Below are positions 7,116 through 63,997 of a stretch of 64,000 nucleotides of DNA, piece after piece. The position numbers and the translations under genes were made by a program. Position 1 is the first letter of the stretch. The number at the start of each line of letters is the position of its first letter. The notes below the pieces were generated by a model. It was not told the origin of the DNA. It made no database searches and was given only the letters and a program-made list of their open reading frames with translations. Source of the DNA: a virus. The stretch lies in IMG/VR virus record IMGVR_UViG_3300044714_000124, positions 5,577 through 69,576 of that record; one strand, given 5' to 3'.

Positions 7116-7633
7116 TGAAAACCAGCGACGACGGCCGACGACTGATCGAGGCGTTTGAGGGACTGTTTTTGTCGGCCTACGACGATGCCGATGATCGGAT
7201 CATGAAGCTCGGTCAGGTCGTTCGCGGGACACTGACAATCGGTTACGGGCACACTTCTGCCGCAGGGCCGCCCAAAGTATATATCGGCATGACGATCACG
7301 CACGAGGAAGCGGATTCATTTCTTTCCTCCGACCTGACCAGCGTCGAGTTGGAAATCGCCCATCTGGTGAAGGTGAGCCTCGATCAACAGCAGTTTGATG
7401 CGCTGGTCTCGTTCCAGTACAACACCGGCTGGCTGGCGCATCGTCAATGCTCGCTGCTGGCAGCGCTTAATGCGGGAAATTACGATTTGGCTGACAAGGA
7501 TTTTGGGCTATACGACGAAGCCGCCGGCAAGGTCCTTGCCGGCTTGCAGCGGCGCCGGAGGGCCGAGGCTTTGATGTTCTCCGGCAAAGTGCAGCAGGCG
7601 TTTGCTGTGGCGGGGGTGCCGGTTGTATCATGA
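7115..7633 (+). CDS. endolysin, lysozyme (GH24-like)
   Basis: LIEAFEGLFLSAYDD...LTIGYGHT...QQQFDALVSFQYNTG...GLQRRRRAEALMF. Confidence 0.92.
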   Translation: MKTSDDGRRLIEAFEGLFLSAYDDADDRIMKLGQVVRGTLTIGYGHTSAAGPPKVYIGMTITHEEADSFLSSDLTSVELEIAHLVKVSLDQQQFDALVSFQYNTGWLAHRQCSLLAALNAGNYDLADKDFGLYDEAAGKVLAGLQRRRRAEALMFSGKVQQAFAVAGVPVVS

Positions 7634-8117
7634 CGGCCCGGCTCGCCGGGGCGGAAGCGAGATCGCAACGTCGCAACGTCGCAACGCCGCAACGCCGACA
7701 ACTGTTGACAGAGGTGTTGCGGCCCGGCTCGCCGGGGAGGAAGCGAGATATTAAAGTTAACGAAGACATCCTAAGTCATCGACAAGGTGTTGCGGCCCGG
7801 CTCGCCGGGACGGAAGCGAGATATATCCCAAAATAATGCTTGCTAGTTCGAATAGCAAGGTGTTGCGGCCCGGCTCGCCGGGGCGGAAGCGAGATAACCA
7901 CTCCCTAGCACAGATCGCTGTGTTTGCAAACAGGTGTTGCGGCCCGGCTCGCCGGGGGGGAAGCGAGATAAAAAATAGAGCCGGGAAACATCCTGATTCC
8001 GTGGATGTGTTGCGGCCCGGCTCGCCGGGACGGAAGCGAGATGATCCAAATCTTGTACGTCTTATCAATCGCCTCATTGATGTGTTGCGGCCCGGCTCGC
8101 CGGGGAGATAGCGAGAT
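7628..8117 (+). CRISPR. CRISPR array 2: 7 repeats, 6 spacers, same repeat as array 1
   Basis: Repeats at 7628 (5'-degenerate, overlaps the endolysin stop), 7714, 7787, 7860, 7934, 8007, 8082; two spacers are identical to array 1 spacers. Confidence 0.97.
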
Positions 8118-8296
8118 CAAGAAGTCGTGGATGCGTCCCACAACGCCAGCAAGGCGTTCATTCTTTCGTCCTGCCTGGCGAGTTCCAGCCACGATTGAGC
8201 GATCGACAAGCGCAACAAGCGTTCCCGCGGTGGGAATGCCAGTGCCGCGCTCAGGCATTCAGCGGCAATCAGGCGGTATCGTTGCCAGTTCTGCAT
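8117..8296 (-). CDS. small protein (59 aa) resembling short helical proteins common in rhizobial genomes
   Basis: Manual translation MQNWQRYRLIAAECLSAALAFPPRERLLRLSIAQSWLELARQDER; AAGGA RBS. Confidence 0.5.
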   Translation of the reverse strand: MQNWQRYRLIAAECLSAALAFPPRERLLRLSIAQSWLELARQDERMNALLALWDASTTS

Positions 8297-8435
8297 GGTC
8301 CATCCTTCCCCATGCGCATCTTAACCTGACGGCATGACGGGTCTGTGCAAAATTGATCGAGTGTCGATCTTTTTTTGCCATCAGTGCTTGATAAACGTAT
8401 AAGCTGACGCTCATGCGCTTGATGGAGTGACTCAA

Positions 8436-8618
8436 ATGACACGTGGCTTGATCTTCTGGGTGCTGATGCTCATTTGGTTCGTCTTTTCATTGGCTCTTTT
8501 TGGCGGTGTATTTCCGGGCAATGTTGCCCGCTTTGGCGAGATCGGGAATACGTTCCTGTTCTTCGTTTTGTTTGCCCTGCTTGGCTGGGAGGCCTATGGT
8601 CCGGCTGTGCATGGATAG
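8436..8618 (+). CDS. small two-TM membrane protein (possible lysis accessory)
   Basis: Two hydrophobic segments, close to the endolysin. Confidence 0.55.
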   Translation: MTRGLIFWVLMLIWFVFSLALFGGVFPGNVARFGEIGNTFLFFVLFALLGWEAYGPAVHG

Positions 8619-8627
8619 GGTGCAGTG

Positions 8628-8855
8628 ATGAAAGTCGATCCGAAAGTCACGATGATCCTTGGGATCATCACGACATTGTCGCTGGCGATCGGCCAGGGCA
8701 CGATTCATCTGACCGGAGCGGTGCCCGACACCTGGATTCCGGTCATCACCGGATGGGCGGCGATCATCAGCACGGTCAACAGCGCTGTATTGACGGCGCT
8801 CGCGGCAATATCCTCGAAACAATCCGGGCCGCTGTCGTCGGATGCGCCTAAATAG
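8628..8855 (+). CDS. small membrane protein, holin candidate
   Basis: Two hydrophobic segments and a polar C-terminal tail, in the lysis region. Confidence 0.5.
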   Translation: MKVDPKVTMILGIITTLSLAIGQGTIHLTGAVPDTWIPVITGWAAIISTVNSAVLTALAAISSKQSGPLSSDAPK

Positions 8856-8864
8856 GAGATCGGG

Positions 8865-9053
8865 ATGGCCTACAGCGTCGGCGAGATCAATGCGGTGTTC
8901 GCCCAGGTCAAGAGAGACCTGTTTGCTCTGATCGATGCCAAGGGCGGCATGTTCTCCGGCGAGATCGAGGACCAAATCTCCGATGCCGAGCTTCTGACTA
9001 TCGTCAGGGATGGCCTGACGGCCTTGTCGAACTATCAGACCCAGCAAAAATAG
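8865..9053 (+). CDS. hypothetical protein
   Basis: AGGAG RBS, 62 aa. Confidence 0.55.
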   Translation: MAYSVGEINAVFAQVKRDLFALIDAKGGMFSGEIEDQISDAELLTIVRDGLTALSNYQTQQK

Positions 9054-9065
9054 GAGAGCCTCTCT

Positions 9066-9395
9066 ATGGCGATTACCAGCCTGAATTCCGTCGTGTCGAT
9101 CCTCCAGAGTGCCGGCGTGACCGGCACGGCGCTTTCGACCGCCATTTCCGGGCTATTTGCGGCGAGTCCGACGACGGCTATCAATGCGACTTGCCAAGTG
9201 ATCCTTGCCAATTCCAACAATCCGACAGTGGTCAAGGACGAGGCGATGAAGCTCGGTGAGATTCCGAATCTGCCGCTTGCCGTGGCAAACCTGATTCCGA
9301 GCCTGACGGCAGCCAATAGCGCACCGGAGGTCGTGCAGGCGGTACAGAATATCGAGACGGCGATAGGACCGAATCACTCGATTTTCAACCTGTAG
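9066..9395 (+). CDS. hypothetical protein
   Basis: AGGAG RBS, 109 aa. Confidence 0.6.
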   Translation: MAITSLNSVVSILQSAGVTGTALSTAISGLFAASPTTAINATCQVILANSNNPTVVKDEAMKLGEIPNLPLAVANLIPSLTAANSAPEVVQAVQNIETAIGPNHSIFNL

Positions 9396-9407
9396 AGTGC
9401 CTCTGAC

Positions 9408-9644
9408 GTGAGTCCTTTCACGCTCGTTGACATAGCCGCTATTTTGAGCGCCGTGGCAGCGCTCGGCAGTTGCGTTGTAGGCTGGTCGAATATGCGCAGA
9501 ATCCAGGAAGTGCATTTGTCCGTCAACTCGCGCCTCGATCAATTGCTGGCGGTGACGAAGGCGAAAGCATATGAAAACGGCATGGCCGAACAAAGAGCGC
9601 GTCATCTGGAAGACAATCCGGGAATTGCCGAAAGGAAACTCTAG
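9408..9644 (+). CDS. membrane-anchored hypothetical protein
   Basis: N-terminal TM segment followed by VHLSVNSRLDQLL. Confidence 0.55.
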   Translation: MSPFTLVDIAAILSAVAALGSCVVGWSNMRRIQEVHLSVNSRLDQLLAVTKAKAYENGMAEQRARHLEDNPGIAERKL

Positions 9645-9930
9645 GCAATGTCCGTCATCGATCGCTTTGTGGTTCTGACCGGAGTGGTCGCATTTGCCGC
9701 TGCCGTCGTCATTATTTTGATCGCGGCGTTTTTCGTGCCATGGTAAATCGAATGATGGCTTGTGCGGCGAGTTTCTGGCTAGGCGGCATGTTCTCGGTGC
9801 CGGTTGGATATGCGGTTGCGCGCAACGCCGGCGCCGAGCCGCTGCCATGGCTCATCGTGGCTGTGGCGACGCTGTTTTGGCCGTTGACGCTCATGCTGGG
9901 GGTCGCTGGGGTGAAGGCGGACCGCAGATT

Positions 9931-10257
9931 GTGAGCGATATCCCGGGTAACGTCGATCTGGCATTCAAGGCCGCCGAGGTCCTGTCGATATTCGGCGGCG
10001 GGAGTTTCATGCTGGTCAAGCTCGGCCGCGCCGTCGAGCGCTTCGAGATCCTGGGCGCCCTGCAATCAAAGGAAATCGCCGAACTGAAAACCGAAGTCGT
10101 GACCATGCGCAACGTGATCACGCAAGTTGCACTGCAGAACGAGCGCCTGGACCAGATTTCCAAGCGCATCAATAATCAGGACGAGACGATTCTGCTGATG
10201 CGCAAGGGGGAAGGGTATATTTTCCCGCTGCGGGATCGTGTCATTGAGGCTAAGTGA
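9931..10257 (+). CDS. TM plus coiled-coil hypothetical protein
   Basis: GTG start inferred; heptad-like C-terminal half. Confidence 0.5.
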   Translation: MSDIPGNVDLAFKAAEVLSIFGGGSFMLVKLGRAVERFEILGALQSKEIAELKTEVVTMRNVITQVALQNERLDQISKRINNQDETILLMRKGEGYIFPLRDRVIEAK

Positions 10258-10579
10258 TGTTTCCGGCGCATCGGCGCTTCTTCTCCTGCCACGCGAGAAC
10301 CGCCCCGTAAACCCGTCCCTGGATGGTCGGATGAATCCGCACGACCCGGTCGGCCTTGCCGCACCTGACCACGACGATCAATCCATAGGCGACGAGCTCA
10401 TCGATGGTGTGCTGCGACAGGGTGAGGCCGCCATGGAAAAAACGTCCCCGTGAAGCATTGATCGGTCCGTGGCGGTGTATCCAGCGCAATGCCCCGCGCA
10501 AGCGTGGCGGCAATGCGTAGGCCATGGCGCGCAGATGGGCAAACGCGGCGGCCGGGTCGATGGTCTCGACGCTGCGCAT
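10250..10579 (-). CDS. hypothetical protein (possible winged helix)
   Basis: LSQHTIDELVAYGLIVVV pattern. Confidence 0.4.
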   Translation of the reverse strand: MRSVETIDPAAAFAHLRAMAYALPPRLRGALRWIHRHGPINASRGRFFHGGLTLSQHTIDELVAYGLIVVVRCGKADRVVRIHPTIQGRVYGAVLAWQEKKRRCAGNIT

Positions 10580-10589
10580 GGCGGTGCGC

Positions 10590-10937
10590 CTATCGCCGGA
10601 CCACGCTCCCGTCCATTTTCTTCTTCCACTTGCTCCGCCGGCCGCACGGCATCGGCCGCGACGACAGTCCCGGCCCGCTGATTCCCAGATGCCGCCGTCT
10701 CTGCCGCTTGACCTTGGCGACCATCGGGACCACGATTTCGCTGCCGTGACGGCGATTGCACGCGACATGCGCGACGCCGACCTCTTCGCCTCCCAAGGCC
10801 GCCGGGGCGCCGATGTGGGATATCTCCCAGGCAGCGCCGGCCTCGACGATGAAACCGCATATATTGCAACGCACCGCGCCGCTTACGTCGCGGGAAATCT
10901 GCCAGATATGCTCACGCCGACGCGGTGATGAGGTCAC
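10590..10937 (-). CDS. HNH-like endonuclease
   Basis: CNICG...WEISH...P.ALGG...AHVACNRRH. Confidence 0.7.
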   Translation of the reverse strand: MTSSPRRREHIWQISRDVSGAVRCNICGFIVEAGAAWEISHIGAPAALGGEEVGVAHVACNRRHGSEIVVPMVAKVKRQRRRHLGISGPGLSSRPMPCGRRSKWKKKMDGSVVRR

Positions 10938-10999
10938 GCAACAACTCCATTTAATCCTGTTGACAACCTCACGCTACCATTTGCAACCTGCCTGTCAAT

Positions 11000-11272
11000 A
11001 TGAAAAATGAATCGAAATCTAACGAGCAGGATCACCTCCTCATGCGCCATCCCCTGGAAGTGTTTCGCGAGCGCCAGCAACCGCCGTGGCGCCAAATCGA
11101 TCTGGCCCGGAAGCTCGGCGTCGGACGGGCGACGGTCTCCCATTGGGAGGGCGGCACCCGGCGCATCGGGATCGACAAGCTCGCGCGCGTGATGGCTGTG
11201 ACGGGCTTGGATATGATGGTGCTGCGCCAGGATATCGGCGAGTTGCTCGAACGGAATGGGGACAGGCAATGA
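11000..11272 (+). CDS. Cro/XRE-family HTH regulator
   Basis: QIDLARKLGVGRATVSHWEGGTRRI. Confidence 0.85.
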   Translation: MKNESKSNEQDHLLMRHPLEVFRERQQPPWRQIDLARKLGVGRATVSHWEGGTRRIGIDKLARVMAVTGLDMMVLRQDIGELLERNGDRQ

Positions 11273-13403: not shown

Positions 13404-13601
13404 TGACCCGTCATCGCTGGCGCCTCGACACGCGCGTTGACGATCATCTGACCATCCGCACCTGCGTAAAATGCGGCTGCGTTGCTCATTCTCGCCACGA
13501 ATGGAACGGCCGCTACGAGGTCCACTGGAAGGAATACTATACGGCGGACAGGCCGGAAATAAGGCTCACGATCATGCCGGAATGTGGGGAGGGATAGTGA
13601 G

Positions 13602-15478: not shown

Positions 15479-15553
15479 CGCGTCGGATTCGACTCGAAGC
15501 TAAAAATCTGATAAATCCGTTGCAATCGGTGTCGAATTGCGCGGAATCTCGAG

Positions 15554-16473: not shown

Positions 16474-16485
16474 AGAGGTGATCTG

Positions 16486-18207: not shown

Positions 18208-18217
18208 TTGGGGAGGA

Positions 18218-18904: not shown

Positions 18905-18990
18905 GCAAAGGGCGTCGTAAAAATGCCGATCGATAGATTGTGCCGGAAGCTGGATCACGAACGAAAGAAACGCTAGGGAAATCTCTTCGC

Positions 18991-27069: not shown

Positions 27070-28029
27070 TTGCCGAAACTGGTCATCTCTCTAGCGACCC
27101 GAGGCCGCCCGGCGCAGCTTCTTGACACCATCCTGAAGTCCCGCGCGAACTGGACGCACCCGGAAACCGTGCTGGTGGTCGCCTGCGACGATGACGACCA
27201 GCCATCCATCGCCGCGGTGCTCGGCCTCAATCCCGCGATCCGCCATCCGCAATTGCCGGTCCCCCAGACCGGTATCGTGCTTGATGTCAGGCCAAGAGAA
27301 GACACCATCGCCGGCAAATGGAACCGCGCAATCGAAGTCCCCGCCGATGTCTATCTGGTGGCCGCCGATGATGCTCCCGATGTCACGCCGGGTTACGACA
27401 GCGCCATTCTCGAAGCCGCTGGCCGTTTCAACGACGGAATCGGTGTCGTATATGGGCACCTCGCCAACGCTTCCTTTCCCGGCATCATGGCCCCAACCCG
27501 CAAGTTTGTCGAAAAGCTCGGCCATATCTTTCCTCCGTTGTTCTCCTACTGGTTCGTCGATCACTGGATCGACGATATCGCGCGATTGATCGACCGCATT
27601 TCGTTTGCCGATGTTCGCACCGACCAATCCCGCGCCGGGCAGACCCAGGAAATGCGCGAGCCTGCTTGGTGGGCGAATTTCTTCGATGCGGGCTATCTGC
27701 TGCGCCGGCGGATCGCTCATGCGATCGTCTCCGGCGAGGACTTCATCGAGACTCCGGGCCGGAAAGCGATACTGCTTGCCCACCATCCCCTGATCGAATT
27801 CCGTTCGCGCTGGATCAACGACAACGTCCGCGCCAATGCGGGCGCAATGACCAATTGGGCGGCCGAGCAGAACAAGGACGAGCGCTACATGCGCGTGCGC
27901 AATGCCGCGGTGGGGATGCTCGATGGCATTCTCGACGGAATGGATGCCGTCGAGGCGGCGCGGTTTCGTGGCTTGCTGGTGCCGCCCACCATCGTGCCGG
28001 CGCTGCCGCGGGCTGTGGGGTTCATGTGA
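27070..28029 (+). CDS. glycosyltransferase (GT-A/GT2-like)
   Basis: TTG start after GAGGA; ISLATRGRP, VACDDDD, VAADD, FVDHWIDD. Confidence 0.75.
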   Translation: MPKLVISLATRGRPAQLLDTILKSRANWTHPETVLVVACDDDDQPSIAAVLGLNPAIRHPQLPVPQTGIVLDVRPREDTIAGKWNRAIEVPADVYLVAADDAPDVTPGYDSAILEAAGRFNDGIGVVYGHLANASFPGIMAPTRKFVEKLGHIFPPLFSYWFVDHWIDDIARLIDRISFADVRTDQSRAGQTQEMREPAWWANFFDAGYLLRRRIAHAIVSGEDFIETPGRKAILLAHHPLIEFRSRWINDNVRANAGAMTNWAAEQNKDERYMRVRNAAVGMLDGILDGMDAVEAARFRGLLVPPTIVPALPRAVGFM

Positions 28030-29462
28030 TGGCCGTCCCGCGCAGTTATTTACCATTTCCGCCTGATCTATATATCGTAAATCCTCGTATTGTGTTAGCC
28101 CACGGCTGCTTCGACCTTCTCCATCTCGGCCACATTCGCCATCTTCAGGAAGCCCGCGCCATGGGCGATCGTCTGGTTGTGAGCGTGACCGGCGACCAGC
28201 ACGTCGAAAAGGGTTTGGGCCGCCCGCGCTTTACCGCCGCTGAGCGCGTGGAGGCGCTCAAGGCGTTGGCCTGCGTCGATGAAGTGTTCGTCAACGATGA
28301 TTCGGATGCGGTTGCAACAATCCAGCGAATTCGGCCGGCGGTGTATGTCAAGGGCGCCGATTACGTCTCGCACGGCAACGATGTTGTGGGAATGTCCGAT
28401 GCCATTTTGGCCGCCGAGGTCTCGGCGGTTCGATCCCATGGCGGCGAATTTGCTCTCACCAAGGCCGCCCTGTGGTCGTCCTCCCGTCTTCTGGCCGGCG
28501 AGGTCTATTCGCCCGACGTCTTCGATTATCTCTCCCACGCCCGCGCCAATGGCTTCGGCGAGGCTATCGCCGAAGCCATGGCAAAAGCCGATCGGCTTAA
28601 GATCATCTTCGTGGGCGAGCGCATCATCGACGAGTACCGCTACGTCGAGGCGCTTGCGCGTCCGTCGAAGGAAACCATCGTCGCGGTTGCCGAAGGTGAC
28701 CGTACCGAAGTGTTCGACGGTGGCGTTGCGATCGCTGCGCAGCATGGCGAATGGAAGCGCGCCAAAGTCGTCACGGCTGGCATTCCGTTGCGCAAGACAC
28801 GGTTCATCGACCGTGATTTTCACCGCAAGCTGTTCGAAAGCTATTCCGCCCCGCAGATGGAGTGGAAGCCCGAACAGCGCGAGCGGTTCCGCGAAATCGT
28901 GGCGAAGGAAGCCGGCGAGGCCGATGTGGTGATCGCCCTCGATTTCGGGCACGGATTGATCGATGCGCAAATGCGGCGCGCGATGGAAGCTGCATCGTTC
29001 TTCGCGGTGAACTCCCAGACCAACGCGGCGAACCGCGGCTTCAATCCGATCACGCTTTATCATCGCGCCGATCTGGTGTGTCTCGACGATCCGGAAGCGC
29101 GGCTTGCCGTGCATCTCCAATTCGAGCCGATCGCGATGGTGATTGATGCTCTGCGGGCAAAGATTGAAAGTCCTCGTTTCCTTGTCACACACGGTCGCTA
29201 TGGCGCGGTGGCTTGGCAGCAATGGTTTCAAGCCTCACTGTACCGCGAGCTTCCGGCCTTGGCGACCCGTGTCGTGGACACCATGGGCGCCGGCGACGCC
29301 TTCTTCGCGGTGGCCGCTCCGCTGGTGGCGGCGGGTTGCGGCCTCGAAGCCGCCGCCTTCGCCGGCAGTGTCGCTGCGGCCATCAAGACCTCGATCGTCG
29401 GGCATCGGCGCCCGGTCGGCCGCGGTGAGTTGGTGGCGACCATCAAGGCGTTGCTGAAATGA
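28029..29462 (+). CDS. bifunctional nucleotidyltransferase / PfkB sugar kinase (HldE/RfaE-like)
   Basis: HGCFDLLHLGHIRHL, YVKGADY, DFGHG, VVDTMGAGDAF. Confidence 0.9.
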   Translation: MAVPRSYLPFPPDLYIVNPRIVLAHGCFDLLHLGHIRHLQEARAMGDRLVVSVTGDQHVEKGLGRPRFTAAERVEALKALACVDEVFVNDDSDAVATIQRIRPAVYVKGADYVSHGNDVVGMSDAILAAEVSAVRSHGGEFALTKAALWSSSRLLAGEVYSPDVFDYLSHARANGFGEAIAEAMAKADRLKIIFVGERIIDEYRYVEALARPSKETIVAVAEGDRTEVFDGGVAIAAQHGEWKRAKVVTAGIPLRKTRFIDRDFHRKLFESYSAPQMEWKPEQRERFREIVAKEAGEADVVIALDFGHGLIDAQMRRAMEAASFFAVNSQTNAANRGFNPITLYHRADLVCLDDPEARLAVHLQFEPIAMVIDALRAKIESPRFLVTHGRYGAVAWQQWFQASLYRELPALATRVVDTMGAGDAFFAVAAPLVAAGCGLEAAAFAGSVAAAIKTSIVGHRRPVGRGELVATIKALLK

Positions 29463-29547
29463 TCGACTTCGTATTCAGCTTTGTGCACGACTTTTTGGTA
29501 GTGTTTGTGATGACGTTTCTTGGGCTTGGTATTGCCAGCTACGTGTT

Positions 29548-29840
29548 ATGGGGAAAGGCAGGATGGGATACGTTTGTGGACATGCTGAAATGAACGACTT
29601 CCCTAGGGATAACGTAGATGGATATGCTCCGGATCGTCGCCCAGTCCTGGCCACTCGCGGCGGTGGCGATCTCGTTCATTGCATTCGTCGGAGTCTACGC
29701 GCTGTTTAGTCGGGCCGCCCGTCGCGAGGACGAGCGCGTACGCATGTTCAGGATTGAAAACCGCAGCAGGGACAGTTGACGTGATTCGCAGGCATGGGGA
29801 AAGGCAGGATGGGATACGTTTGTGGACATGCTGAAATGAA
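29548..29840 (+). repeat. 47-bp perfect direct repeat (29548-29594, 29794-29840)
   Basis: ATGGGGAAAGGCAGGATGGGATACGTTTGTGGACATGCTGAAATGAA occurs twice. Confidence 0.9.
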
Positions 29841-30435
29841 TGAATCCATCAGCACCACACTGATCTGGCCCGGACGTCCGTTTGCCGACGGTCGAGGCTT
29901 CGGCTGGGATGTCCAGCAGGCATTCACTCACGTCGAGGCTGAGCCGGATGCCTTTGAGACGGCCTTGAAAATCATGACTTCGGCCCGCGACAGGCGCAGC
30001 AAGCTCTATTTCGTCGGCAACGGCGGCTCGGCGGCGATCGCGAGCCACATGGCGGCCGACTTCACGAAAGCGGGTGGCTTTTCGGCCTTTGCCCTCAATG
30101 ATGCCGCTGCATTGACGGCGTGGTCGAACGACTGCGGCTACGAAAAATCCTATGTGTCGCAACTCCACAATCACCTGGACAACGGCGATGTCGTGATAGC
30201 GATTTCAAGCTCGGGGGCCTCGCGCAATATCATCGATGCGGTCGATGTCGATCACCAGGGGCCGCATGAATTCGACCGCATCACGCTTTCCGGCTTCAAT
30301 CCTGGCAATCCGCTCCGCGCCAAAGGCGATCTTAACTTCTACGTTCCGTCGCACCGCTATGGCGTGGTCGAGGTCGTGCATTTGATGATCCTTCACGCGA
30401 TGCTTGACAGTATCGTGGCGCAGGAGGTCGCGTGA
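29836..30435 (+). CDS. SIS-domain sugar-phosphate isomerase (GmhA-like)
   Basis: FVGNGGSAAIASHMAAD, ALTAWSNDCGY, IAISSSGASRNI. Confidence 0.88.
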   Translation: MNESISTTLIWPGRPFADGRGFGWDVQQAFTHVEAEPDAFETALKIMTSARDRRSKLYFVGNGGSAAIASHMAADFTKAGGFSAFALNDAAALTAWSNDCGYEKSYVSQLHNHLDNGDVVIAISSSGASRNIIDAVDVDHQGPHEFDRITLSGFNPGNPLRAKGDLNFYVPSHRYGVVEVVHLMILHAMLDSIVAQEVA

Positions 30436-30834
30436 TGAAACCCATAGAACCGCTGCACGTGAATGTTCGTTTCGGTCCCGGCATTCCGGTCGAGGTTTAT
30501 GGAACAGCGCTGTTGCAGTTCGAAAAGTATCTGCGCGCCTTGGCGAATCTGCCGTGCGAAGTATTCCAGGATCGCGCCGGCGATGATTCCAAGCTCCGCG
30601 CCGCGATGACGCCGCAACAGAGGGCAAAGCTATGATCCATCCTTCCCGCATGAGGTTGCGTGTATGTGCCGTAGGAGGCGATTGCTGGGAGGGCATGGAC
30701 GACGCGCAGCATTGCAATGCTGCTTGCAAATTAAGCGGTGCCAATAAGCGTTATTGGGATGTGAGGCCGGGAGAATCCCTTGGGGAGATGATGCGGCGCG
30801 GTGGCCCCGGTATTGTGGAGGATAAAAATCAGAC

Positions 30835-31983
30835 ATGACCTCTCCCCTCCCCGAACTCGTCAGCCATGTGGTCGGCGGATCGCCGGTCTACGACCTCGAG
30901 CTCGACGGTACCAAGATCGGCTGGTATCGCGACCGCGTGCTGGCATGGCAGCGGGGCGAGCGCATCGCGCCTATTACGATGGATGTCGCATGGACGCGCA
31001 AATGCGAGGCAGCCTGCAATTTCTGCTACGCCGCTTTGCAGGCGAGCGAAGATACCGTCATCACAAAACAGAACGCTTTCGACTTCCTGGAAGACGCCGC
31101 TGCGATCGGCGTCAAGGGCGTCTCTCTGATCTCCGATGGCGAAAGCACCAACGTGCCCTGGTATGCCGAGTCGATCAAATACGGCGCCTCCCTCGGCTTG
31201 CAGCTTGGCATCAGTTCGAACGGCGTCAAACTCACGCCGGATGTGCTCGAACAAATCCTGCCGCATCTGTCTTACCTCCGCTTCAATTTCTCCGGCGGCG
31301 ACAAAAAACGCTGGGCGCAGATCATGGGGATGAAACAGGCGATGTTCGATCGCGTCGTCGCCAACATCAAGGCCGCCATGGAGATCAAGCGGCGCGATAT
31401 GTTAACGTGCAACGTCAACATGCAGTTCGTCGTCATGCCAAAGGACGGTGACCAGATAATACCGTTCACCAGACTGGCGAAGGAACTGCGGCCCGACTAC
31501 GCCATCATGAAGCATTGCGCGGATAGCGTCGATGGCGAGCTCGACGTCGATTACCGCCGCTATAGCGACCTGTTTCCGCTGTTCGAGGAAGCGGAGACCT
31601 ACAGCGATGCGACCTTCCGGGTGGCGGTGAAATGGTCGCGGATACAGAACGAGGGCAAACGGCTCTATCAAAGGTGCTACGGCCCGCCGTTCATTCTGCA
31701 AATGTCCGGCAATGGGCTGATCGCGCCGTGCGGGCAGAAGTTCAATTCGCGCTATGCGAAGTTTCATATCGGGAACATCACGCGTGACCGGTTCCGGGAT
31801 ATCTTTGCGAGTGACCGCTATTGGGAAGTGATGAGCTATCTGGCAAGCGATGCGTTTGATGCGCAGCAGAATTGCGGCGAAAATTGTCTTCAGACGAATA
31901 CCAATCTCTGGCTGGATCGCTTTGTGAAGGGAAACGCAGCGTTTCCGACTACACCGGCGCCGCCGCAACTGGGATTCTTGTGA
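30835..31983 (+). CDS. radical SAM/SPASM protein
   Basis: CEAACNFC (CxxxCxxC); C-terminal CYGP...APC...IGNI...C...C. Confidence 0.9.
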   Translation: MTSPLPELVSHVVGGSPVYDLELDGTKIGWYRDRVLAWQRGERIAPITMDVAWTRKCEAACNFCYAALQASEDTVITKQNAFDFLEDAAAIGVKGVSLISDGESTNVPWYAESIKYGASLGLQLGISSNGVKLTPDVLEQILPHLSYLRFNFSGGDKKRWAQIMGMKQAMFDRVVANIKAAMEIKRRDMLTCNVNMQFVVMPKDGDQIIPFTRLAKELRPDYAIMKHCADSVDGELDVDYRRYSDLFPLFEEAETYSDATFRVAVKWSRIQNEGKRLYQRCYGPPFILQMSGNGLIAPCGQKFNSRYAKFHIGNITRDRFRDIFASDRYWEVMSYLASDAFDAQQNCGENCLQTNTNLWLDRFVKGNAAFPTTPAPPQLGFL

Positions 31984-31984
31984 A

Positions 31985-32117
31985 CTAACATAGCCCGGCT
32001 CGCCGGGGAGGAAGCGAGATGGCGCGTTGATAAAGGAGTTAATCGAGAGCTGCGTGGAGTGAACGGCCATTGCGAGCATTTGTATTGCGGCTCGGCTCGC
32101 CGGGACGGAAGCGAGAT
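31985..32117 (+). CRISPR. CRISPR mini-array 3 (two repeats of the array 1 family, 61-nt spacer)
   Basis: GCCCGGCTCGCCGGGGAGGAAGCGAGAT ending at 32020 and GTATTGCGGCTCGGCTCGCCGGGACGGAAGCGAGAT at 32082-32117. Confidence 0.9.
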
Positions 32118-32159
32118 TGGCTCGCTCGCGGGAGGGCCAAGCAAGTCAGATGATTTGGA

Positions 32160-33947
32160 GTGCCGGACGTGAAACTCGCCCAATACGTCGCCGACTGGAT
32201 CGCCTCATTCTCTCCCCGCGTCTATGCGGTCTGTGGCGCCGGCGCCATGCACCTCAACGATGCGATCTGTCACCATGACTGGATCGACGTGATTGCCGTA
32301 CATCATGAACAGGCGGCCTGTTTCGCCGCCGAGGCGGAAGCGCGCATCACCAACGAACCGTCCGTCGTCCACGTTACCGCAGGTCCCGGCGGCACCAACA
32401 CCATGACAGGCATCGCCTGCGCATTCGTCGATTCCATTCCCATGATAGTCCTTGCCGGGCAGGTATCCTCGGAGACCATGCGCGCCGGACTGCGCTATCG
32501 CCAGTATGGAATGAACGAGCTCGACATGCTGACGATGGTCAAGTCGATCACCAAGTATTGCGCATCGGTGACAAGGCCCGATTCGATCCGCTACCATCTT
32601 GAACGTGCCTTGCATCTCGCCAACACGGGCCGCAAGGGGCCGGTGTGGCTCGAAATCCCGCTGGATATCCAGGCCGCCGAAATCGATCCGGCCAGCCTGC
32701 GGGCCTTCAACGTCGCGGAATATCCGGTGATCGAAAATCAGGCCTATCTCGCTCGCAATGCCGTCAAGGTAATGGATATGATCGCCGCCGCCAAGCGGCC
32801 CTTGATGATCATAGGCAACGGCGTGCGGCTCTCGGGTGCATGCGATGACCTGCTCCGGCTGGTCAATCTGCTCGAAATTCCAGTCGTCTCATCGTGGAAT
32901 GCGAGCGACATCGTGCCGAACGATTATTCGTGGTACATCGGCCGTTGCGGCATTTTTGGTGGGAGGGTGGCAAATCGGGCGGTGCAGGACGCCGATGTTA
33001 TTCTTGCGATCGGCACAAGGCTTTCCGTTGCGCAGATCGGGCATGATACAACTGCTTTCGCGCCGCACGCCGCAAAGATCGTGGTCGATATCGATCCCTT
33101 CGAGGCAGAGCGGCTCAACCCGCATCTTGCTGTCGTGGCCGATGCCGGCGAATTCATTCGTGCCTTATTTGATCGAATCGGTCCATGGCGGGGGCGGTTC
33201 CAGTCAACCGTATCATGGGTTCGGCCATGGGCATCAGGAACATTGGAGGACAGGCCCGCGCTTCTTGATCCCGATGCCGGCGTTGATGCCTATCGGTTCG
33301 TGCGCATGCTGCCGCGATTTCTCGACGATAATGCGATCGTCGTCACCGACGTGGGGTTTTCGTTCATTCCGGTCATGCAGGAATTGAGTTTGAGGCCCGG
33401 ACAGCGGCTGTTTCATTCCTCCGGCGTTTCTCCGATGGGTTGGGCGCTCGCCGCCGCCATTGGCGCCGCCAAGGCTGCGCCCGACTGTCAGGTCGTATGC
33501 CTGATCGGCGACGGCGGCTTGATGGTCAATATCCAGGAGTTTCACACCATCGCCCAGCTCGGATTGCGAATCACCGTGTTCGTGTTCTGCAACGACGGCT
33601 ACGCGACCATGCGGCTCACCCAGCAGCATCATTTTCAGCGCGAGTCGATATCAGGACCGAACAGCGGGCGCGCCATAGCGCCGGAAATGATCATCGATGT
33701 GGCCGAAAGATTCAATCTGCCGACGTATTTCTTGGAGTCTGACGATGAGCTGGATGAGTTTACCGACGGACTGTTCAATCCGCGCCGTCTCACGCCCTGC
33801 GTAGTCGCCTTGAGCATGGCGCCCGATCAGGTTATCTCGCCGCGGGTGATGTCCTATATGAAGGATGGGCAGATGATCCCCGGCCGGCTCGATGCGATGT
33901 GGCCGCCGCTGGCGCAGCAAGAGCGAATCATGGAGACTGCAACGTGA
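32160..33947 (+). CDS. thiamine-pyrophosphate-dependent enzyme (acetolactate synthase-like)
   Basis: HHEQAACFAAEA, VTAGPGGTN, GRKGPVWLEIPLD, IGDGGLMVNIQE...NDGY. Confidence 0.9.
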   Translation: MPDVKLAQYVADWIASFSPRVYAVCGAGAMHLNDAICHHDWIDVIAVHHEQAACFAAEAEARITNEPSVVHVTAGPGGTNTMTGIACAFVDSIPMIVLAGQVSSETMRAGLRYRQYGMNELDMLTMVKSITKYCASVTRPDSIRYHLERALHLANTGRKGPVWLEIPLDIQAAEIDPASLRAFNVAEYPVIENQAYLARNAVKVMDMIAAAKRPLMIIGNGVRLSGACDDLLRLVNLLEIPVVSSWNASDIVPNDYSWYIGRCGIFGGRVANRAVQDADVILAIGTRLSVAQIGHDTTAFAPHAAKIVVDIDPFEAERLNPHLAVVADAGEFIRALFDRIGPWRGRFQSTVSWVRPWASGTLEDRPALLDPDAGVDAYRFVRMLPRFLDDNAIVVTDVGFSFIPVMQELSLRPGQRLFHSSGVSPMGWALAAAIGAAKAAPDCQVVCLIGDGGLMVNIQEFHTIAQLGLRITVFVFCNDGYATMRLTQQHHFQRESISGPNSGRAIAPEMIIDVAERFNLPTYFLESDDELDEFTDGLFNPRRLTPCVVALSMAPDQVISPRVMSYMKDGQMIPGRLDAMWPPLAQQERIMETAT

Positions 33948-52594: not shown

Positions 52595-52597
52595 CGC

Positions 52598-53323: not shown

Positions 53324-53324
53324 T

Positions 53325-54299: not shown

Positions 54300-54305
54300 G
54301 AGGCG

Positions 54306-57646: not shown

Positions 57647-57649
57647 AAA

Positions 57650-57760
57650 CCGCTGATAGGACTGCCGTTCATGTCGGCCTCATTGAAGCGTGCGAAACGA
57701 GGCCCGTGGGATGATGCGTGGGCCGATATTTTCCGACGTGAACGGCAGCCTTATCAGCGG
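57650..57760 (+). CRISPR. single-spacer unit C with a split type I-G-like repeat
   Basis: CGGCCTCATTGAAGC ends at 57689; spacer about 57690-57725; then ATATTTTCCG; arms 57650-57677 and 57733-57760 form a 28-bp stem. Confidence 0.75.
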
Positions 57761-57780
57761 CTCGACAATATGGGTGAATG

Positions 57781-58467: not shown

Positions 58468-58727
58468 ACCTCGATACGCCGACATACACCAAGGCGTCGC
58501 GATTTGTGACAAGGGAAGTGCCGTTTGTAACGTTTGGCAATCATCGGGGCCTGACCGATTTTCAATTGGCGAGCGACCCTGGATTGATGGAGTTTTTTCT
58601 ACACTTCAAACATTGCTTTAAAAGAAATGAATATCTCATGAGTTGGGTTTATGATCCTTATGATGAGTTGCAGGATGGGTCTCAAGCGACCCATCCGATG
58701 AAACTGCTGGGGCCTGCAAAATCATGA
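58464..58727 (+). CDS. AT-rich hypothetical protein ending with the same GPAKS as the upstream gene
   Basis: GGGGCCTGC(G/A)AAATCATGAAC occurs at both ends. Confidence 0.5.
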   Translation: MNLDTPTYTKASRFVTREVPFVTFGNHRGLTDFQLASDPGLMEFFLHFKHCFKRNEYLMSWVYDPYDELQDGSQATHPMKLLGPAKS

Positions 58728-59968: not shown

Positions 59969-60282
59969 CCGAATCCACCAGACCGGCCCTTCCGATCTCC
60001 GACCCTCATCACGTCGCGCCGACGTTCGTCAATGACCTCGTCGCCCGCGGCATCTTCAACGGCAACGTCAACCTCACATTCGCTGCGGCGCTCTTCACGC
60101 CACGTGCCGACGGGACGGTCGATCCCGACCTTACCATCGTGGCGCGGCTTCGGATGGATATGCGCTGTGCGGCCGGTCTTTATCTGGCCCTTGGCGATCT
60201 TCTCAAGCAGGCGAATCCTTCGGTCGGACAGAACTCTACAGAGAGCGTCGATGCGGCGGCGGCGCCCGGCGCGCTGAATTGA
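59965..60282 (+). CDS. hypothetical protein
   Basis: DPHHVAPTFVND...IVARLRM. Confidence 0.55.
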   Translation: MTESTRPALPISDPHHVAPTFVNDLVARGIFNGNVNLTFAAALFTPRADGTVDPDLTIVARLRMDMRCAAGLYLALGDLLKQANPSVGQNSTESVDAAAAPGALN

Positions 60283-60286
60283 AGCT

Positions 60287-60871
60287 GTGGCCGCGATCTC
60301 GCCAGTGCGCCTTGCCACGCCGGCCGATGAACCGGAACTGATCGCGCTGTTGCGGATGATGCACCGCGAAGGCGGCATGCGCGGGCTCGATATCGATTGC
60401 GTCAAGGCGACATTCGCCAAGGCGTTCACGCGCAGGGGCGGCATTCTCGCGGTGATCGGGGATCCTGGACAGATCAAGGGAGCGCTCTTTCTCTTGATCT
60501 CCCGCATGTGGTACACGTCTGAAAATCATCTCGAAGATTTGTTCCTGTTTGTTCACCCGGATCATCGGCGCTCCGACTGCGCGCGGCAACTCGTCGAATA
60601 TGCGAAGAAATGCTCTGACGACATCTCGCGCGAGATGGGCGCCAAGGTTCCGCTGCTGATGGGGGTATTCAGCGCCAAGCGCACAGCGGCCAAGGTGCAT
60701 CTCTATCGCCGCTGGTTGGGGTTTCCGGTTGGTGCGGTGTTCGTGCATAATGCGACCTGGATCGACGCCGCGCAGTCATGTGACGAGGATTACTGGCGCT
60801 CGCCCAAAGTGGCGCTTAAGATCATCAACCAGCAGCGGCGGGTGGCGAGGCGGCGAATCGCGGCAAGGTGA
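60287..60871 (+). CDS. GNAT-fold protein of the virion module
   Basis: VRLATPADE, MWYT...LEDLFLFVHPDHRRS..A..L. Confidence 0.75.
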   Translation: MAAISPVRLATPADEPELIALLRMMHREGGMRGLDIDCVKATFAKAFTRRGGILAVIGDPGQIKGALFLLISRMWYTSENHLEDLFLFVHPDHRRSDCARQLVEYAKKCSDDISREMGAKVPLLMGVFSAKRTAAKVHLYRRWLGFPVGAVFVHNATWIDAAQSCDEDYWRSPKVALKIINQQRRVARRRIAAR

Positions 60872-60892
60872 GGTCGGGAGAGGGCGCAATCG

Positions 60893-63800
60893 ATGTGTAA
60901 GGGCTCGAATACGACCACCACACAGACGTCGCCCAATCCCCAGGCGATGGGGGCCTACACCAACGTCCTCAATCAGGCCCAAGGCGTCGCCCAGACGCCG
61001 TTCACGCCTTACGGGGGCCAATTCACGGCGCCGGTAAACGCCCAGCAATATGCCGGGATCAGCAACATCAACCAGAATGCCGGATTTGCCTCTCCCTACA
61101 TCAATGAGGCCGCCGGCTATGCGACGGAGGCGGCGCAGCCGATCGGATTTCAGCCGCTCACCACACCGCAGATCGATCAGTATATGTCGCCCTACACGCA
61201 GGACGTGGTGCAGGCGACGCAGGCGCAGTTCAACAATCAGAATGCGCAGCAGCAGGCTCAATTGACCGGCAATGCCGCGGCCCAGGGGGCGCTCGGCGGC
61301 GACCGCGTCGGCATCGCGGCGGCAAATCTTGCGGGGCAGCAGCAGCTTGCCGAAGCGCCGGTGATTGCCGGCCTTGAAAACACCGGCTATCAGACCGGAT
61401 TGCAGACTGCCCAACAGCAACAGCAGATGGGGTTGCAGACGCAGCTTGCCGAACAGGCAAACCTCGGCCAGGCGGCCTATTCGCTCGGCAATCTCGGCGT
61501 TGCCGGCGAGAATGCGGCGTTGACGGGAGCCAACGCGCAGGTCGGCGCCGGCAGTCTGGAGCAACAGACGCAACAGGCGAATCTCTCGGCGCTCTATAAC
61601 CAGTTCGAACAGCAGCAGGCGTTTCCGTTCCAGGAAACGCAATGGCTGGCCGGGGTTGATACCGGCGTCGGGTCGCAGATGGGCGGGACCTCGTCCACGA
61701 CGGGGCCGCCGCCGAGCTTGATCTCCCAATTGGCCGGCTTGGGAACTGCCGGTATCGGCGCCGGACAGAGCATGACCGGACTCTCCAATCTTCTGCCGCT
61801 TCTGGCGGCCGCGGGCGGCGGGGGCGTTGCCGGTTTCGCCGATGGCGGCAGTCCCGGCGGTGCGATGCCGGGGATCCCCTATGGCGGCGTTGCCGGATAT
61901 ATTCCCGGATTGAATCTCACGCCGGGCCACGGGCCTCCCTCGCCTCCCTCGGCATCGAACAGTTCGCAGCAGATGATGCAGCAGGCGGCGCAGCTCGCCG
62001 CCATGTTCAAGAATCAGGGCAATGCGAATTCAACCGGCATAAGCGGCGTCAACGGCAGTTCGCTATCGAATCCGAATCTCTCCGCGAACAATGAATATGC
62101 ACAGTTTCCCGCATGGACCGGGACGGGGGCCGATTCGGTTGCCGGCGATGCGAATGGAGGGGCCATAGCGGGCTTCGCTCCCGGCGGCTTCGTCGGTCGC
62201 CTGCCGATGAACAATCGCATCATGGTCCCGCCTCGGGTCATGTCCGGTCCGATGGGCGGGAATCGAGCGCCGATGGCGCCGATGCGGCCGGGCGGGTTGC
62301 GGGCCGGATTTGCGCCGGGTGGGCATGTGCTTTATCGGGATGACGGGGGGGCGACTGACGACGGTCCGGCGAATCCCCTGCCGGGGTTCAATCCCGTGCG
62401 CGACAGCGGTCTGGTGGCTTATCCTGACGACACCAATGTGCAGCCCGTCATTGGAGAAGGTGGTCAGGTTATGGGCTTCGCGCCGGCTGGCCCGATTTCA
62501 TACGACATGGCGGATATTCCGCAGCCTCGATCACGGCCGAATCCATGGCAGGACCTCGGGCCGAGTGCCGGGGAGAGTTCCGGGTTTTCTGTTGATATGC
62601 CGGTTCCCGCTTCGACCCCGAACGATTGGGGTAGTCTCAACAACGTAGCGGTCGGCCTGACGCCCTCGGGAGCCCCAAGGGGCAGTTCCGGGCAGGTCGC
62701 CGGCTTAGGCCCCTCACCGGCCGCCTCCGGGGCGCCACAGGCCGCCCCAGAAGCGGGTGGGGTCGCGGGGTTCGTCAACCGGCTGATCAATCCGATGGGG
62801 TTGAAAGTCAATCCGAACTTCGGCGATGTGCATTTCAATCCATCTCCGGCCGGCCTCGGCCTCATGGCCGCCGGTTTCGGAATGATGGCGTCGCGCAGTC
62901 CATTCCCCGGTGTAGCCATCGGGGAAGGGGCGCTTACCGGCATGCAGACTTATGCGGCGGCGACGAAACAGGAAGAAAGCGCCAAGGACGCGGCAAGGAA
63001 GCTCGATATCGAGGCGGACAAGGCGAAGCAAGAACAACAGAGAGAGACGGCGGCGGAAGCAAACAGGAATTTGATGGCGCAGCAGGGGCGGGAACGGATC
63101 GATATTGCGAGGCAGGCGCAGGACCCGGCCAGAAAGCTCGAATATGAAAAGCAACTCCTGGCGTTGAAGAATGATCCGGCAATGCTCAAAGCCGCGGCTG
63201 ACGCGAAGCGAACCGGCGCCGAACCTCCTGAAGCGATCGATTTCAGGGCTGAGATGGCGTTAGCTGGCAATCCGAGGGCGACACAGGGGCTGCGGGCAGG
63301 GACTCAGGCCGCATCGGACTTTGCGACGGCATTTGCGAGAAAAGCGGCCGAACAGGGGTTATCGCCGAAGGCGATCAATGATCGTCAGGCGCTCTATGCC
63401 GGGCAGATTTCGGGGCAAAAAGTACTTTCGAATCGCGAAGCAAATCTCCTGACCATAGGTAACGAGGCTCGTGATGCTATTCCGTTAGCAATTCAAAATT
63501 CGCAGGCGGCGGATCGTCACGGCAGTGCGACGTGGAATGCGCTGCAACAGAGATGGGAGACAGAATTCGGCGACCAGAAATGGGCAGATCACGTTACCTC
63601 TACCAACGCCCTTGTACATTTGTATGCGCGGGCGCGCAGCGGAGGCCAGGAAACGGTGAGTGGTGTCGAGGAGGGTCATCAACTGCTCAATCCAGCGATG
63701 CCGCCTGCGGCTTATAACGCGACAGTCAAGACTATGGCACGGGAGATCAATCGCTTCCTTCAAGCGCCTGGGGAAACTCGCGAACAGATGTTGAGCGGAA

Positions 63801-63961
63801 AGGTCACGCCGATCGATGTTGAGAACATCGGGAAGCCGCCGCCGAGCGCTGCTGTTTCACCGGGAGGCGGCGGCGCCCCGGCGCCCCCGCCTCCCGGCAA
63901 GTATATATTCAACCCGAAAACCAATCGCCTTGAACCGGTAACGGTGGCGGCTGGGCCATGA
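60893..63961 (+). CDS. internal virion / DNA ejection protein
   Basis: MCKGSNTTTT N-terminus, YMSPYTQDVV, GALGGDR, Q-rich helices. Confidence 0.7.
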   Translation: MCKGSNTTTTQTSPNPQAMGAYTNVLNQAQGVAQTPFTPYGGQFTAPVNAQQYAGISNINQNAGFASPYINEAAGYATEAAQPIGFQPLTTPQIDQYMSPYTQDVVQATQAQFNNQNAQQQAQLTGNAAAQGALGGDRVGIAAANLAGQQQLAEAPVIAGLENTGYQTGLQTAQQQQQMGLQTQLAEQANLGQAAYSLGNLGVAGENAALTGANAQVGAGSLEQQTQQANLSALYNQFEQQQAFPFQETQWLAGVDTGVGSQMGGTSSTTGPPPSLISQLAGLGTAGIGAGQSMTGLSNLLPLLAAAGGGGVAGFADGGSPGGAMPGIPYGGVAGYIPGLNLTPGHGPPSPPSASNSSQQMMQQAAQLAAMFKNQGNANSTGISGVNGSSLSNPNLSANNEYAQFPAWTGTGADSVAGDANGGAIAGFAPGGFVGRLPMNNRIMVPPRVMSGPMGGNRAPMAPMRPGGLRAGFAPGGHVLYRDDGGATDDGPANPLPGFNPVRDSGLVAYPDDTNVQPVIGEGGQVMGFAPAGPISYDMADIPQPRSRPNPWQDLGPSAGESSGFSVDMPVPASTPNDWGSLNNVAVGLTPSGAPRGSSGQVAGLGPSPAASGAPQAAPEAGGVAGFVNRLINPMGLKVNPNFGDVHFNPSPAGLGLMAAGFGMMASRSPFPGVAIGEGALTGMQTYAAATKQEESAKDAARKLDIEADKAKQEQQRETAAEANRNLMAQQGRERIDIARQAQDPARKLEYEKQLLALKNDPAMLKAAADAKRTGAEPPEAIDFRAEMALAGNPRATQGLRAGTQAASDFATAFARKAAEQGLSPKAINDRQALYAGQISGQKVLSNREANLLTIGNEARDAIPLAIQNSQAADRHGSATWNALQQRWETEFGDQKWADHVTSTNALVHLYARARSGGQETVSGVEEGHQLLNPAMPPAAYNATVKTMAREINRFLQAPGETREQMLSGKVTPIDVENIGKPPPSAAVSPGGGGAPAPPPPGKYIFNPKTNRLEPVTVAAGP

Positions 63962-63997
63962 GGGTGAATACCCGGCTCGCCGGGAAGGCAGCGAGAT
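63962..63997 (+). CRISPR. repeat of the array 1 family at the window end (possibly the start of a fourth array)
   Basis: CCCGGCTCGCCGGGAAGGCAGCGAGAT with a degenerate 5' end, immediately after the TGA at 63959-63961. Confidence 0.8.

Follow-up and report, generated by a model that had tools for sequence, protein, structure and literature searches.

Guide-like pseudoknot units behind genes of a soil phage and the TnpB/Cas12-like, probably nuclease-dead protein encoded beside them

The soil phage recorded as IMGVR_UViG_3300044714_000124 in IMG/VR carries a candidate TnpB/Cas12-like effector gene, a CRISPR-like array behind it, and further copies of the same repeat set between ordinary phage genes. 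The window analysed here is a stretch of 64,000 nucleotides (nt) that covers positions 5,577-69,576 of the record; coordinates below refer to it, except those given as genome positions, which count along the record itself. The record is 69,576 bp long with a 127-bp direct terminal repeat, and is therefore treated as a circle of 69,449 bp. The effector candidate (2999-4366, plus strand) is a protein of 455 amino acids (aa) with a TnpB/Cas12 fold, whose only Pfam match is HTH_OrfB_IS605. It is followed by an open reading frame (ORF) of 122 aa (4356-4724, plus strand), by a 71-nt non-coding stretch (4725-4795, plus strand) that may be a leader and holds no promoter match above chance, and by array 1 (4796-5792, plus strand), in which 13 spacers of 35-41 nt separate 14 full repeats.

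A scan of the window with the pattern CCCGGCTCGCCGGGNNGNANGCGAGAT, allowing at most 3 mismatches, returned 24 matches to the 36-nt repeat, all on the plus strand, with an expectation of 0.00 from 100 dinucleotide-preserving shuffles. Fourteen of them form array 1; the rest stand at the three places listed in a first-pass annotation of the window, in 7, 2 and 1 copies. Array 2 (7628-8117, plus strand) follows the lysozyme gene (7112-7633, plus strand; Pfam PF00959 Phage_lysozyme, E 8e-34) and comprises 7 repeats, the first lacking its 5′ part, with spacers of 37-50 nt and terminator-like hairpins after the last repeat. A mini-cassette (31985-32117, plus strand), made of a shortened first repeat, a 61-nt spacer and a full repeat, lies behind a radical S-adenosylmethionine (SAM)/SPASM gene (30835-31983, plus strand; Pfam PF04055 and PF13186). 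A solo repeat that has lost its 5′ part (63962-63997, plus strand, equal to genome 89-124 across the circular junction) follows the gene for a 1022-aa DNA ejection protein (60893-63961, plus strand; PHROG 4287, E 1.4e-15), and a 1304-aa gene starts 43 nt further on. The family matches agree with the names endolysin, radical SAM and ejection protein that the annotation had given to the three upstream genes. Reading beyond the window end, as it had proposed, shows the last copy to be a lone repeat, with no second repeat after it, 8.5 kb upstream of the effector gene on the circle.

A scan of the whole record adds two cassettes of 2 repeats each on the minus strand, cassette A (genome 4439-4547) and cassette B (genome 4819-4928), just before the window start. 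The first-pass statement that all copies lie on the plus strand holds inside the window and fails for the full genome. Its description of the cassettes as dispersed across the genome was overstated: on the circle, 5 of the 6 repeat sites are no more than 8.5 kb from the effector gene, and only the radical-SAM site is remote (27.6 kb). The five sites other than array 1 are referred to as satellites.

Repeats at the satellites are of two kinds. Over the five first repeats, the 5′ 9 nt agree with the consensus at 11 of 45 positions, the level of chance, and the 22 non-variable positions of the core at 108 of 110, which bears out the earlier remark that first repeats have lost 5′ nucleotides and kept their 3′ part. 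The nine later satellite repeats agree at 79 of 81 positions in the 5′ part and at 197 of 198 in the core. The 5′ part is thus retained only behind a spacer, and the 27-nt 3′ core is retained everywhere. Both core changes of the first repeats fall in stem 1 of the pseudoknot described below; one keeps its pair as a wobble, the other breaks the outermost pair. Arrays 1 and 2 combine repeats of constant length with spacers of similar length, in the manner of canonical arrays, and two array 2 spacers are identical to array 1 spacers. Copies of the repeat within one array differ at loop positions 15-19 (ACGGA, GGGGA, GAGGA, GCGGA, AAAGA, GAGAT; 4831-5792 and 7663-8117), which is unusual for arrays grown by repeat duplication. 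The first spacer of array 2 (7664-7713) is 50 nt long and opens with four tandem CGCAACG-like heptamers; GCAACA is also the 5′ part of the repeats in two relatives (L013, L016).

The satellites abut the genes that precede them. As first noted, the initial repeat of array 2 overlaps the lysozyme stop codon, with the TGA (7631-7633) inside its 5′ 9 nt, and the other two satellites of the window stand right behind a TGA. The core begins 3, 10 and 9 nt after the TGA of the lysozyme, radical SAM (31981-31983) and ejection-protein (63959-63961) genes, respectively. Cassette A begins 1 nt past the TAA of an 84-aa ORF. At 4 of the 5 satellites the gap from stop codon to core is therefore 1, 3, 9 or 10 nt, which leaves no intergenic space for a promoter. 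The next start codon lies 24, 29, 42 or 43 nt beyond the last repeat at four sites; behind the mini-cassette it is the GTG (32160) of a thiamine pyrophosphate (TPP) enzyme gene, 42 nt on. The minus-strand cassettes A and B sit within a minus-strand gene block (genome 4066-8162), so that all 6 repeat sites share the orientation of their flanking genes.

Relatives show which part of the repeat matters. In IMG/VR, 52 stretches matched a pattern used to find them and 17 of these encode a relative, with effector homologs in 16 loci. Locus L009 was found separately. Locus L010 is a 7.5-kb contig from a close relative of this phage; it carries the very same repeat and is the only other IMG/VR record with an exact copy. 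Across loci the repeats diverge in sequence yet keep two helices, then two nucleotides, then the spacer. Stem 1 reads, for example, CCCG/CGGG, CCGG/CCGG, CUCG/CGAG or CCAG/CUGG, and stem 2, in which the hairpin loop pairs with the 3′ tail, reads, for example, CUCGC/GCGAG, CCCGC/GCGGG, CCUGC/GCAGG, CGCGC/GCGCG or CGUGC/GCACG. Where the loop bases differ between loci, the tail bases differ to match (TCGC/GCGA, CCGC/GCGG, CTGC/GCAG, GCGC/GCGC, GTGC/GCAC).

This co-variation was counted on an alignment of 135 distinct sense-strand units from 15 loci, drawn from 436 matches (345 distinct) to the hairpin consensus. Units had at most 2 mismatches to that consensus and were clustered or exact; antisense copies of the palindromic hairpin were left out, as were seven matches taken for chance or antisense hits (L018:6048, 6133 and 12226; L022:15276 and 15366; L025:7323 and 7433). 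The 3′ tail played no part in this choice, which partly selects for stem 1 and does not select for stem 2. An H-type pseudoknot pairs 95.2% of the 1215 cells, against 24.5-49.4% when the partners are slid by 1-3 columns. Both partners have changed in 80 cells, a count attained by none of 500 shuffles, which give 15.6 ± 3.5. Compensatory change is seen at 6 of the 9 pairs; pair 8-25, for instance, occurs as UA (85), CG (32) and GC (11). A sequence-blind scan for the pseudoknot geometry gave 29 sites in the genome and 2-5 in shuffles. Rfam 15 has no match at E<=1 in genome 1-15000, and ViennaRNA run on single repeats recovers the hairpin with z-scores from -0.07 to -1.72, pseudoknots being outside its folding model. 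Judged by these alignments, the 3′ core is the only conserved part of the repeat, and it covaries as a pseudoknot across distant relatives.

Gene and units also travel together. In 13 of 14 related IMG/VR loci, units follow the effector gene at a distance of no more than 700 nt (L012 has none), and in 6 of the 14 they precede it by no more than 900 nt. The effector ORF shares its last codons with a unit in three loci (L021, L023, L025), an overlap that recalls the TnpB omega-RNA and the Cas12n trans-activating CRISPR RNA (tracrRNA), both of which overlap a gene's 3′ end (PMC12216341; what is said of this and the other cited sources refers to the sections consulted). A covariance model of the unit, run on five whole records of relatives, detects 4-21 units in each of four, none of them farther than about 11 kb from the effector gene. 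The model finds no unit in the 52-kb record L012 (78% complete), though an effector of 48% identity and the small ORF are encoded there. Relatives thus interleave units with the genes of the effector operon, which makes interleaving a family trait; the remote placement behind the radical-SAM gene is so far special to this phage. Five loci (L014, L019, L021, L023, L025) space their units irregularly, down to 16-24 nt between units, and show no conserved 5′ repeat part. These strings look like scaffold-plus-guide modules rather than arrays built by Cas1-Cas2, and the close spacing suggests a working guide of about 20 nt. Unit variants track the protein from locus to locus, and by this sequence comparison the effector gene and the units are a cognate pair. 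In one relative (L026:4828-6135) the match to the effector homolog falls into two parts, between which stand three units of another, longer hairpin repeat (GGTCTCGTCACC...GGTGACGAGAAC); the gene is either split or contains these units.

The effector belongs to a sizeable family, with 75 relatives scored in a set of 5.8 billion sequences. A phmmer search gave 342 cluster representatives (50% identity) at E<=1e-3, 84 of them at E<=1e-30; among the 150 listed of these 342 matches, most full-length ones align to their own C-terminus, where the query also ends. An AlphaFold (AF2) model built from a 27-row alignment has a mean predicted local distance difference test (pLDDT) score of 84.3. Searched with Foldseek, it matches ISDra2 TnpB (E 9e-14), dCas12f, Cas12f, TranC and Cas12m, with 36 matches in the PDB at E<=1e-3 (entries 8exa, E 9e-14, 9n9c, 8j1j and 8hhl among them), and it contains the WED, REC and RuvC core of the TnpB/Cas12 fold. 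Compared as a profile with PDB sequences, the family is closest to RdCas12n (9j09, E 2.7e-14, profile positions 1-386), an entry that Foldseek ranks 31st (E 1.5e-4).

The catalytic site has decayed throughout the family. In an alignment of 27 of the 75 relatives, picked across the range of identity, the RuvC-II column holds D or E in 0 of 27 sequences and the next column is an invariant proline. When the family is aligned to 9j09, the FEDL strand bearing the RuvC-II glutamate pairs with ...V-A-P-K... of the effector profile. The RuvC-I aspartate is present in 20 of 27. All members stop 43-56 residues from the YKA..G motif on (49 here), with no cysteine pairs or zinc finger and no RuvC-III, so that none has an intact RuvC D-E-D triad. 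Since two of the three catalytic positions are missing family-wide, the effector is read, on its sequence, as an RNA-guided binder and not a cutter, that is, as nuclease-dead.

The complete 69.6-kb genome has no match to Cas1 (PF01867) or Cas2 (PF09827), searches for which were positive in 7 and 6 of 14 control genomes. The 122-aa ORF has no Pfam, PHROG or Atlas family match, and tblastn finds it in the same place, right behind the effector gene, in L013, L012, L021 and L015. It is helical and a possible partner of the effector; a complex prediction for the two proteins scored 0.22, short of the mark of 0.32 for a verdict. Directly upstream of the effector gene and overlapping it, an ORF (2713-3006) gives a weak ribbon-helix-helix (RHH)/Arc-like match (Pfam E 2e-4, PHROG E 3.5e-4). 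Among GenBank phages there was no DNA match to 4700-8200 and no tblastn match to the effector.

Cassettes turn over between closely related strains. The first-pass annotation had proposed comparing cassette positions in related phages, and L010, most of whose proteins are 82-98% identical to the products of genome 20256-27750 (about 90% at the amino acid level), has solo repeats at junctions where this genome has none. A 37-nt repeat insertion directly follows the TAG of its replication-initiator gene, and native intergenic sequence then follows the repeat. A second, in-frame insertion of 51 nt (15 nt plus the repeat) comes after codon 2 of TerL, and the next 22 nt of TerL coding sequence are identical to this genome. 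Read on the minus strand (L010:5860-6010, compared with genome 22062 onward, window 16486 onward), the insertion gives MS-QVVNDVLRPGSPGRKRD-LQSPALL, and translation of TerL seems to include the unit. Contigs of variants about 95% identical to this phage, from two other soil runs, lack one 73-nt repeat-spacer unit of cassette A and 281 nt including cassette B; their array 1 ends differently, and they have other spacers at genome 11076 and before 13665. These insertions and deletions, together with the duplicated spacers, indicate that cassettes come, go and are rearranged within a short time. Such a variant from another soil run also lacks 320 nt at genome 7839-8160 (window 2263-2584), nearly all of a 90-aa minus-strand ORF, and 152 nt upstream of the lysozyme gene (genome 12516-12669, window 6940-7093).

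Two further gene groups adjoin repeat sites. Around the remote mini-cassette (27666-33947) lie genes for a heptose kinase/adenylyltransferase-like protein, the radical SAM/SPASM protein and a three-domain TPP enzyme, an auxiliary cluster that may act on sugars or the cell envelope. The 1304-aa protein encoded after the solo repeat (genome 168-4082) has a C-terminal InPase domain (Pfam E 1.4e-50) as well as DarB-like and minor-head PHROG matches, and is probably an injected internal virion protein. Hints at the host are weak, the nearest TerL having 40% identity.

The explanation that best fits these observations overall, to which we give a probability of about 0.55, is that the units are guides of a phage-encoded, nuclease-dead TnpB/Cas12-like silencer and that the satellite guides are made from phage mRNAs. 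That the units serve as guides for the nuclease-dead protein is its firmest part and seems very probable. The working unit would be a pseudoknot of 25-27 nt, composed of stem 1 (CCCG/CGGG) and stem 2 (CUCGC/GCGAG), followed by AU and then by the guide, and the 5′ 9 nt of each 36-nt repeat would belong to the preceding unit. The main array stands behind the effector operon, with further units in short gaps between phage genes. The shared orientation and the 1-10 nt between stop codons and core make the phage's own polycistronic mRNAs the most likely source of the guides, and it is probable, to a somewhat lesser degree, that the satellites are transcribed within the surrounding mRNAs and cut out 5′ of the pseudoknot. 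The cut might be made by the WED domain of the effector or by a host RNase. The first-pass annotation had supposed that guides embedded in the 3′ ends of phage mRNAs are excised by processing that needs only the 3′ part of the repeat. The constraint on the core alone, the co-orientation, the short gaps and the interleaving in relatives speak for this; the absence of an intact RuvC site, which marks the effector as a binder, calls for revision as to the enzyme that would do the processing. The last step has about even odds: the ribonucleoprotein would bind complementary DNA without cutting it and block transcription of host or rival-phage genes.

A more far-reaching combination is, taken as a whole, unlikely. 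Here a TnpB derivative of about 430 aa, devoid of nuclease activity, and a 25-nt pseudoknot would form a natural multi-guide CRISPR interference (CRISPRi) system, with guides in phage operons and a separate set for each transcription module. The guides would be directed against rival phages or would silence genes of the host, perhaps rpoA. One repeat placed behind a stop codon would turn the adjoining native sequence into a guide against a competitor's repeat-less allele and not against self, and the logic of the TnpB omega-RNA would be reused for exclusion between phages.

Several points weigh against the guide interpretation and its co-transcription step. A scaffold of 27 nt is very small for a TnpB-like protein of about 430 aa, and Cas12n, the closest solved relative, uses a tracrRNA (PMC12216341). 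A search for an anti-repeat near the effector gene, itself a weak one, found 51 runs complementary to the repeat, with 26-51 in nine control regions, and leaves room for a second RNA beside the repeat unit. Some TnpB lineages with rearranged catalytic sites are still active (PMC10691335), though RuvC-III is wholly absent here. Cassette B begins 104 nt past the stop of a well-supported 412-aa AAA_24/Sak4-like gene, and promoters could lie inside the genes upstream of the other satellites. The sequence of this phage was found in 8 soil DNA sequencing runs and in no RNA run.

The spacers, too, point to no confirmed target. A blastn-short search of 28 spacers and pseudo-spacers against the genome returned only the two duplicated spacers (best other match, 18 of 19), and a search for cross-targets among 18 loci gave only self matches and shared spacers. 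Seeds of 22 nt had no match in IMG/VR for sp3, sp10, sp21 and sp8, nor in genome contigs for sp18. The seed of sp17, the second spacer of array 2, had one match in metagenome contigs, on the antisense strand inside a bacterial rpoA (L027:1738-1759), on a contig that reads TPM-domain gene, rpoA, then rplQ. It covers spacer nt 1-22 of 37 only; the remaining 15 nt are unrelated and contain a stop in the rpoA frame. None of 185,579 species genomes contains the 22-mer, and about 0.05 matches would be expected by chance for a random 22-mer if the collection holds the roughly 0.5 Tb that we assumed. The match is ambiguous and may be due to chance: it fits a guide of about 20 nt and not the pattern of an acquired spacer, and rpoA as a target is doubtful.

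Satellites could also be ordinary small arrays that settled in intergenic gaps and are driven by promoters of their own that lie within the 3′ ends of the genes before them. Phage genomes are packed so tightly that any tolerated insertion comes to lie near a gene end, and the non-coding DNA before cassette B suits this account. It fits poorly with the short distance from stop codon to core at the other four satellites and has no need of the strict co-orientation of all six sites. A sigma-70 promoter scan near the satellites gave no more sites than shuffles, a weak result, since the host may use other promoter types; a terminator scan near the cassettes also stayed at chance level. The first-pass annotation had named independent promoters as the observation that would count against guides carried on phage mRNAs; the weak scan gives no sign of them, and we consider such promoters improbable. 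To an equal degree we doubt that the satellites are non-functional debris, array fragments that recombined into the genome and were tolerated only between genes. Their presence or absence varies between near-identical strains, the solo repeat lacks a bounded guide, one spacer has the odd length of 61 nt, and arrays 1 and 2 have two spacers in common, all as expected of debris. Against it, the five first repeats combine a core of 98% identity with a 5′ part no better than chance, which argues for selection on the core after the 5′ part had decayed; moreover, orientation always follows the genes, and one of the two core changes keeps its pair as a wobble.

Intergenic units might instead act mainly in cis, as protein-bound pseudoknots that split, stabilise or gate the translation of neighbouring cistrons. 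Repetitive extragenic palindromic (REP) elements also sit after stop codons, and such REP-like or processing sites would explain why units lie just past stop codons, with the next start 24-43 nt further on, why the solo repeat and those of L010 precede native sequence only, and why one unit stands in frame inside TerL. The same units, however, form long arrays, and the two-repeat satellites carry unique spacers of 37-38 nt that are bounded by a full repeat like those of arrays, which makes a main role in cis quite unlikely. Finally, solitary repeats in viral genomes are known as RNA anti-CRISPRs (Racrs), decoys that imitate the host's CRISPR repeat and so disable its Cas protein (PMC10651486). 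This phage encodes its own protein beside a matching array, repeat variants track that protein across loci, and the exact repeat recurs in IMG/VR only in a close relative of the phage, all of which makes a decoy function highly improbable.

If the guide interpretation is right, this would rank as the smallest RNA-guided system in nature that binds DNA with multiplexed guides, built from a protein of about 430-455 aa and a scaffold of 25-27 nt, and a phage-borne counterpart of TldR, Cas12m and dCas12f. With guides placed behind ordinary genes, their supply would follow the infection's transcription programme by simple means, and the differing cassette positions in near-identical phages point to some mode of single-repeat movement. 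The covarying pseudoknot and the family of 342 clusters make the system directly testable, and its parts would be attractive for compact CRISPRi tools.

Short handles of a similar kind are familiar from Cas12a. The 5′ handle of its CRISPR RNA (crRNA), a short pseudoknot or stem that comes from the repeat, ends in ...AGAU directly before the guide, and only the 3′ part of the repeat is present in the mature crRNA. Cas12a itself is an active nuclease of 1,200-1,300 aa that processes its own pre-crRNA, and the effector described here has about 430-455 aa.

One of the closest parallels is offered by the TnpB-like nuclease-dead repressors, TldR (bioRxiv 10.1101/2023.11.30.569447; PMC13622181). As those sources describe them, TldRs have a TnpB fold with a decayed RuvC site and loss of the C-terminus, are RNA-guided, have no transposase nearby and include one clade on prophages; the action proposed for them, steric block of RNA polymerase, is the one proposed here. 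The neighbours of the present effector gene are likewise no transposase, being the RHH gene, the 122-aa ORF and the lysozyme gene. TldRs differ in using one adjacent guide derived from an omega-RNA, with a scaffold of about 100 nt and a guide of 9-16 nt; here there are multi-guide arrays, intergenic cassettes and a pseudoknot of 25-27 nt. TldR guides match promoter targets flanked by a TAM, and binding there represses transcription; the one 22-nt spacer match here, ambiguous as it is, falls within the coding region of a bacterial rpoA. Arrays are not mentioned in the consulted sections of those two sources, the word itself having 0 occurrences in PMC13622181, and the closest solved sequence to the present family is Cas12n. 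Cas12n (type V-N, formerly V-U4) has been described from the Actinomycetota Rothia, Micrococcus, Corynebacterium and Actinomadura as an active nuclease with a CCCC zinc finger and a tracrRNA that overlaps its ORF (PMC12216341). It shares with the present family a miniature TnpB-like architecture and a CRISPR array, and is the best profile match among solved structures. The family here, in contrast, lacks the RuvC-II acid, the zinc finger and RuvC-III, occurs on phage contigs, and shows no anti-repeat above background in the weak search made. Departing from TldR in the guide RNA and from Cas12n in the catalytic site and zinc finger, it is filed under neither.

Other type V relatives bind without cutting, among them Cas12m (PMC10442227), dCas12f acting with a sigma factor (PMC13472631; structures 9n9c and 9n9m) and Cas12k. 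They are likewise derived from TnpB and guided by RNA to bind DNA with no cutting of double-stranded DNA, and dCas12f has also lost RuvC-III. These proteins are host-encoded, and larger or associated with sigma factors or transposases, and their guides lie only at the locus, with none reported behind unrelated genes in the parts of these sources drawn on. Viral mini-arrays, solitary repeat units and crRNA-like regulators (PMC10651486; PMC11656645; bioRxiv 10.1101/2024.10.29.618823; bioRxiv 10.1101/2023.03.03.530964) resemble the satellites as short arrays or single repeats scattered in viral genomes, the single repeats being followed by partial or native sequence. They rely on host Cas proteins, as decoys or by regulatory hijack, or serve interviral conflict through host systems; here, by contrast, the phage itself encodes the cognate, nuclease-dead protein, and the units stand directly against stop codons within operons. 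In the literature consulted, no description was found of this effector family, of the pseudoknot unit or of guides behind ordinary phage genes, and the family may be among the 40 unnamed V-U groups of PMC10691335. Taken together, these comparisons lead us to infer a system that works like TldR, Cas12m or dCas12f, by guided binding without cutting, through a TnpB derivative whose closest known relative is Cas12n.

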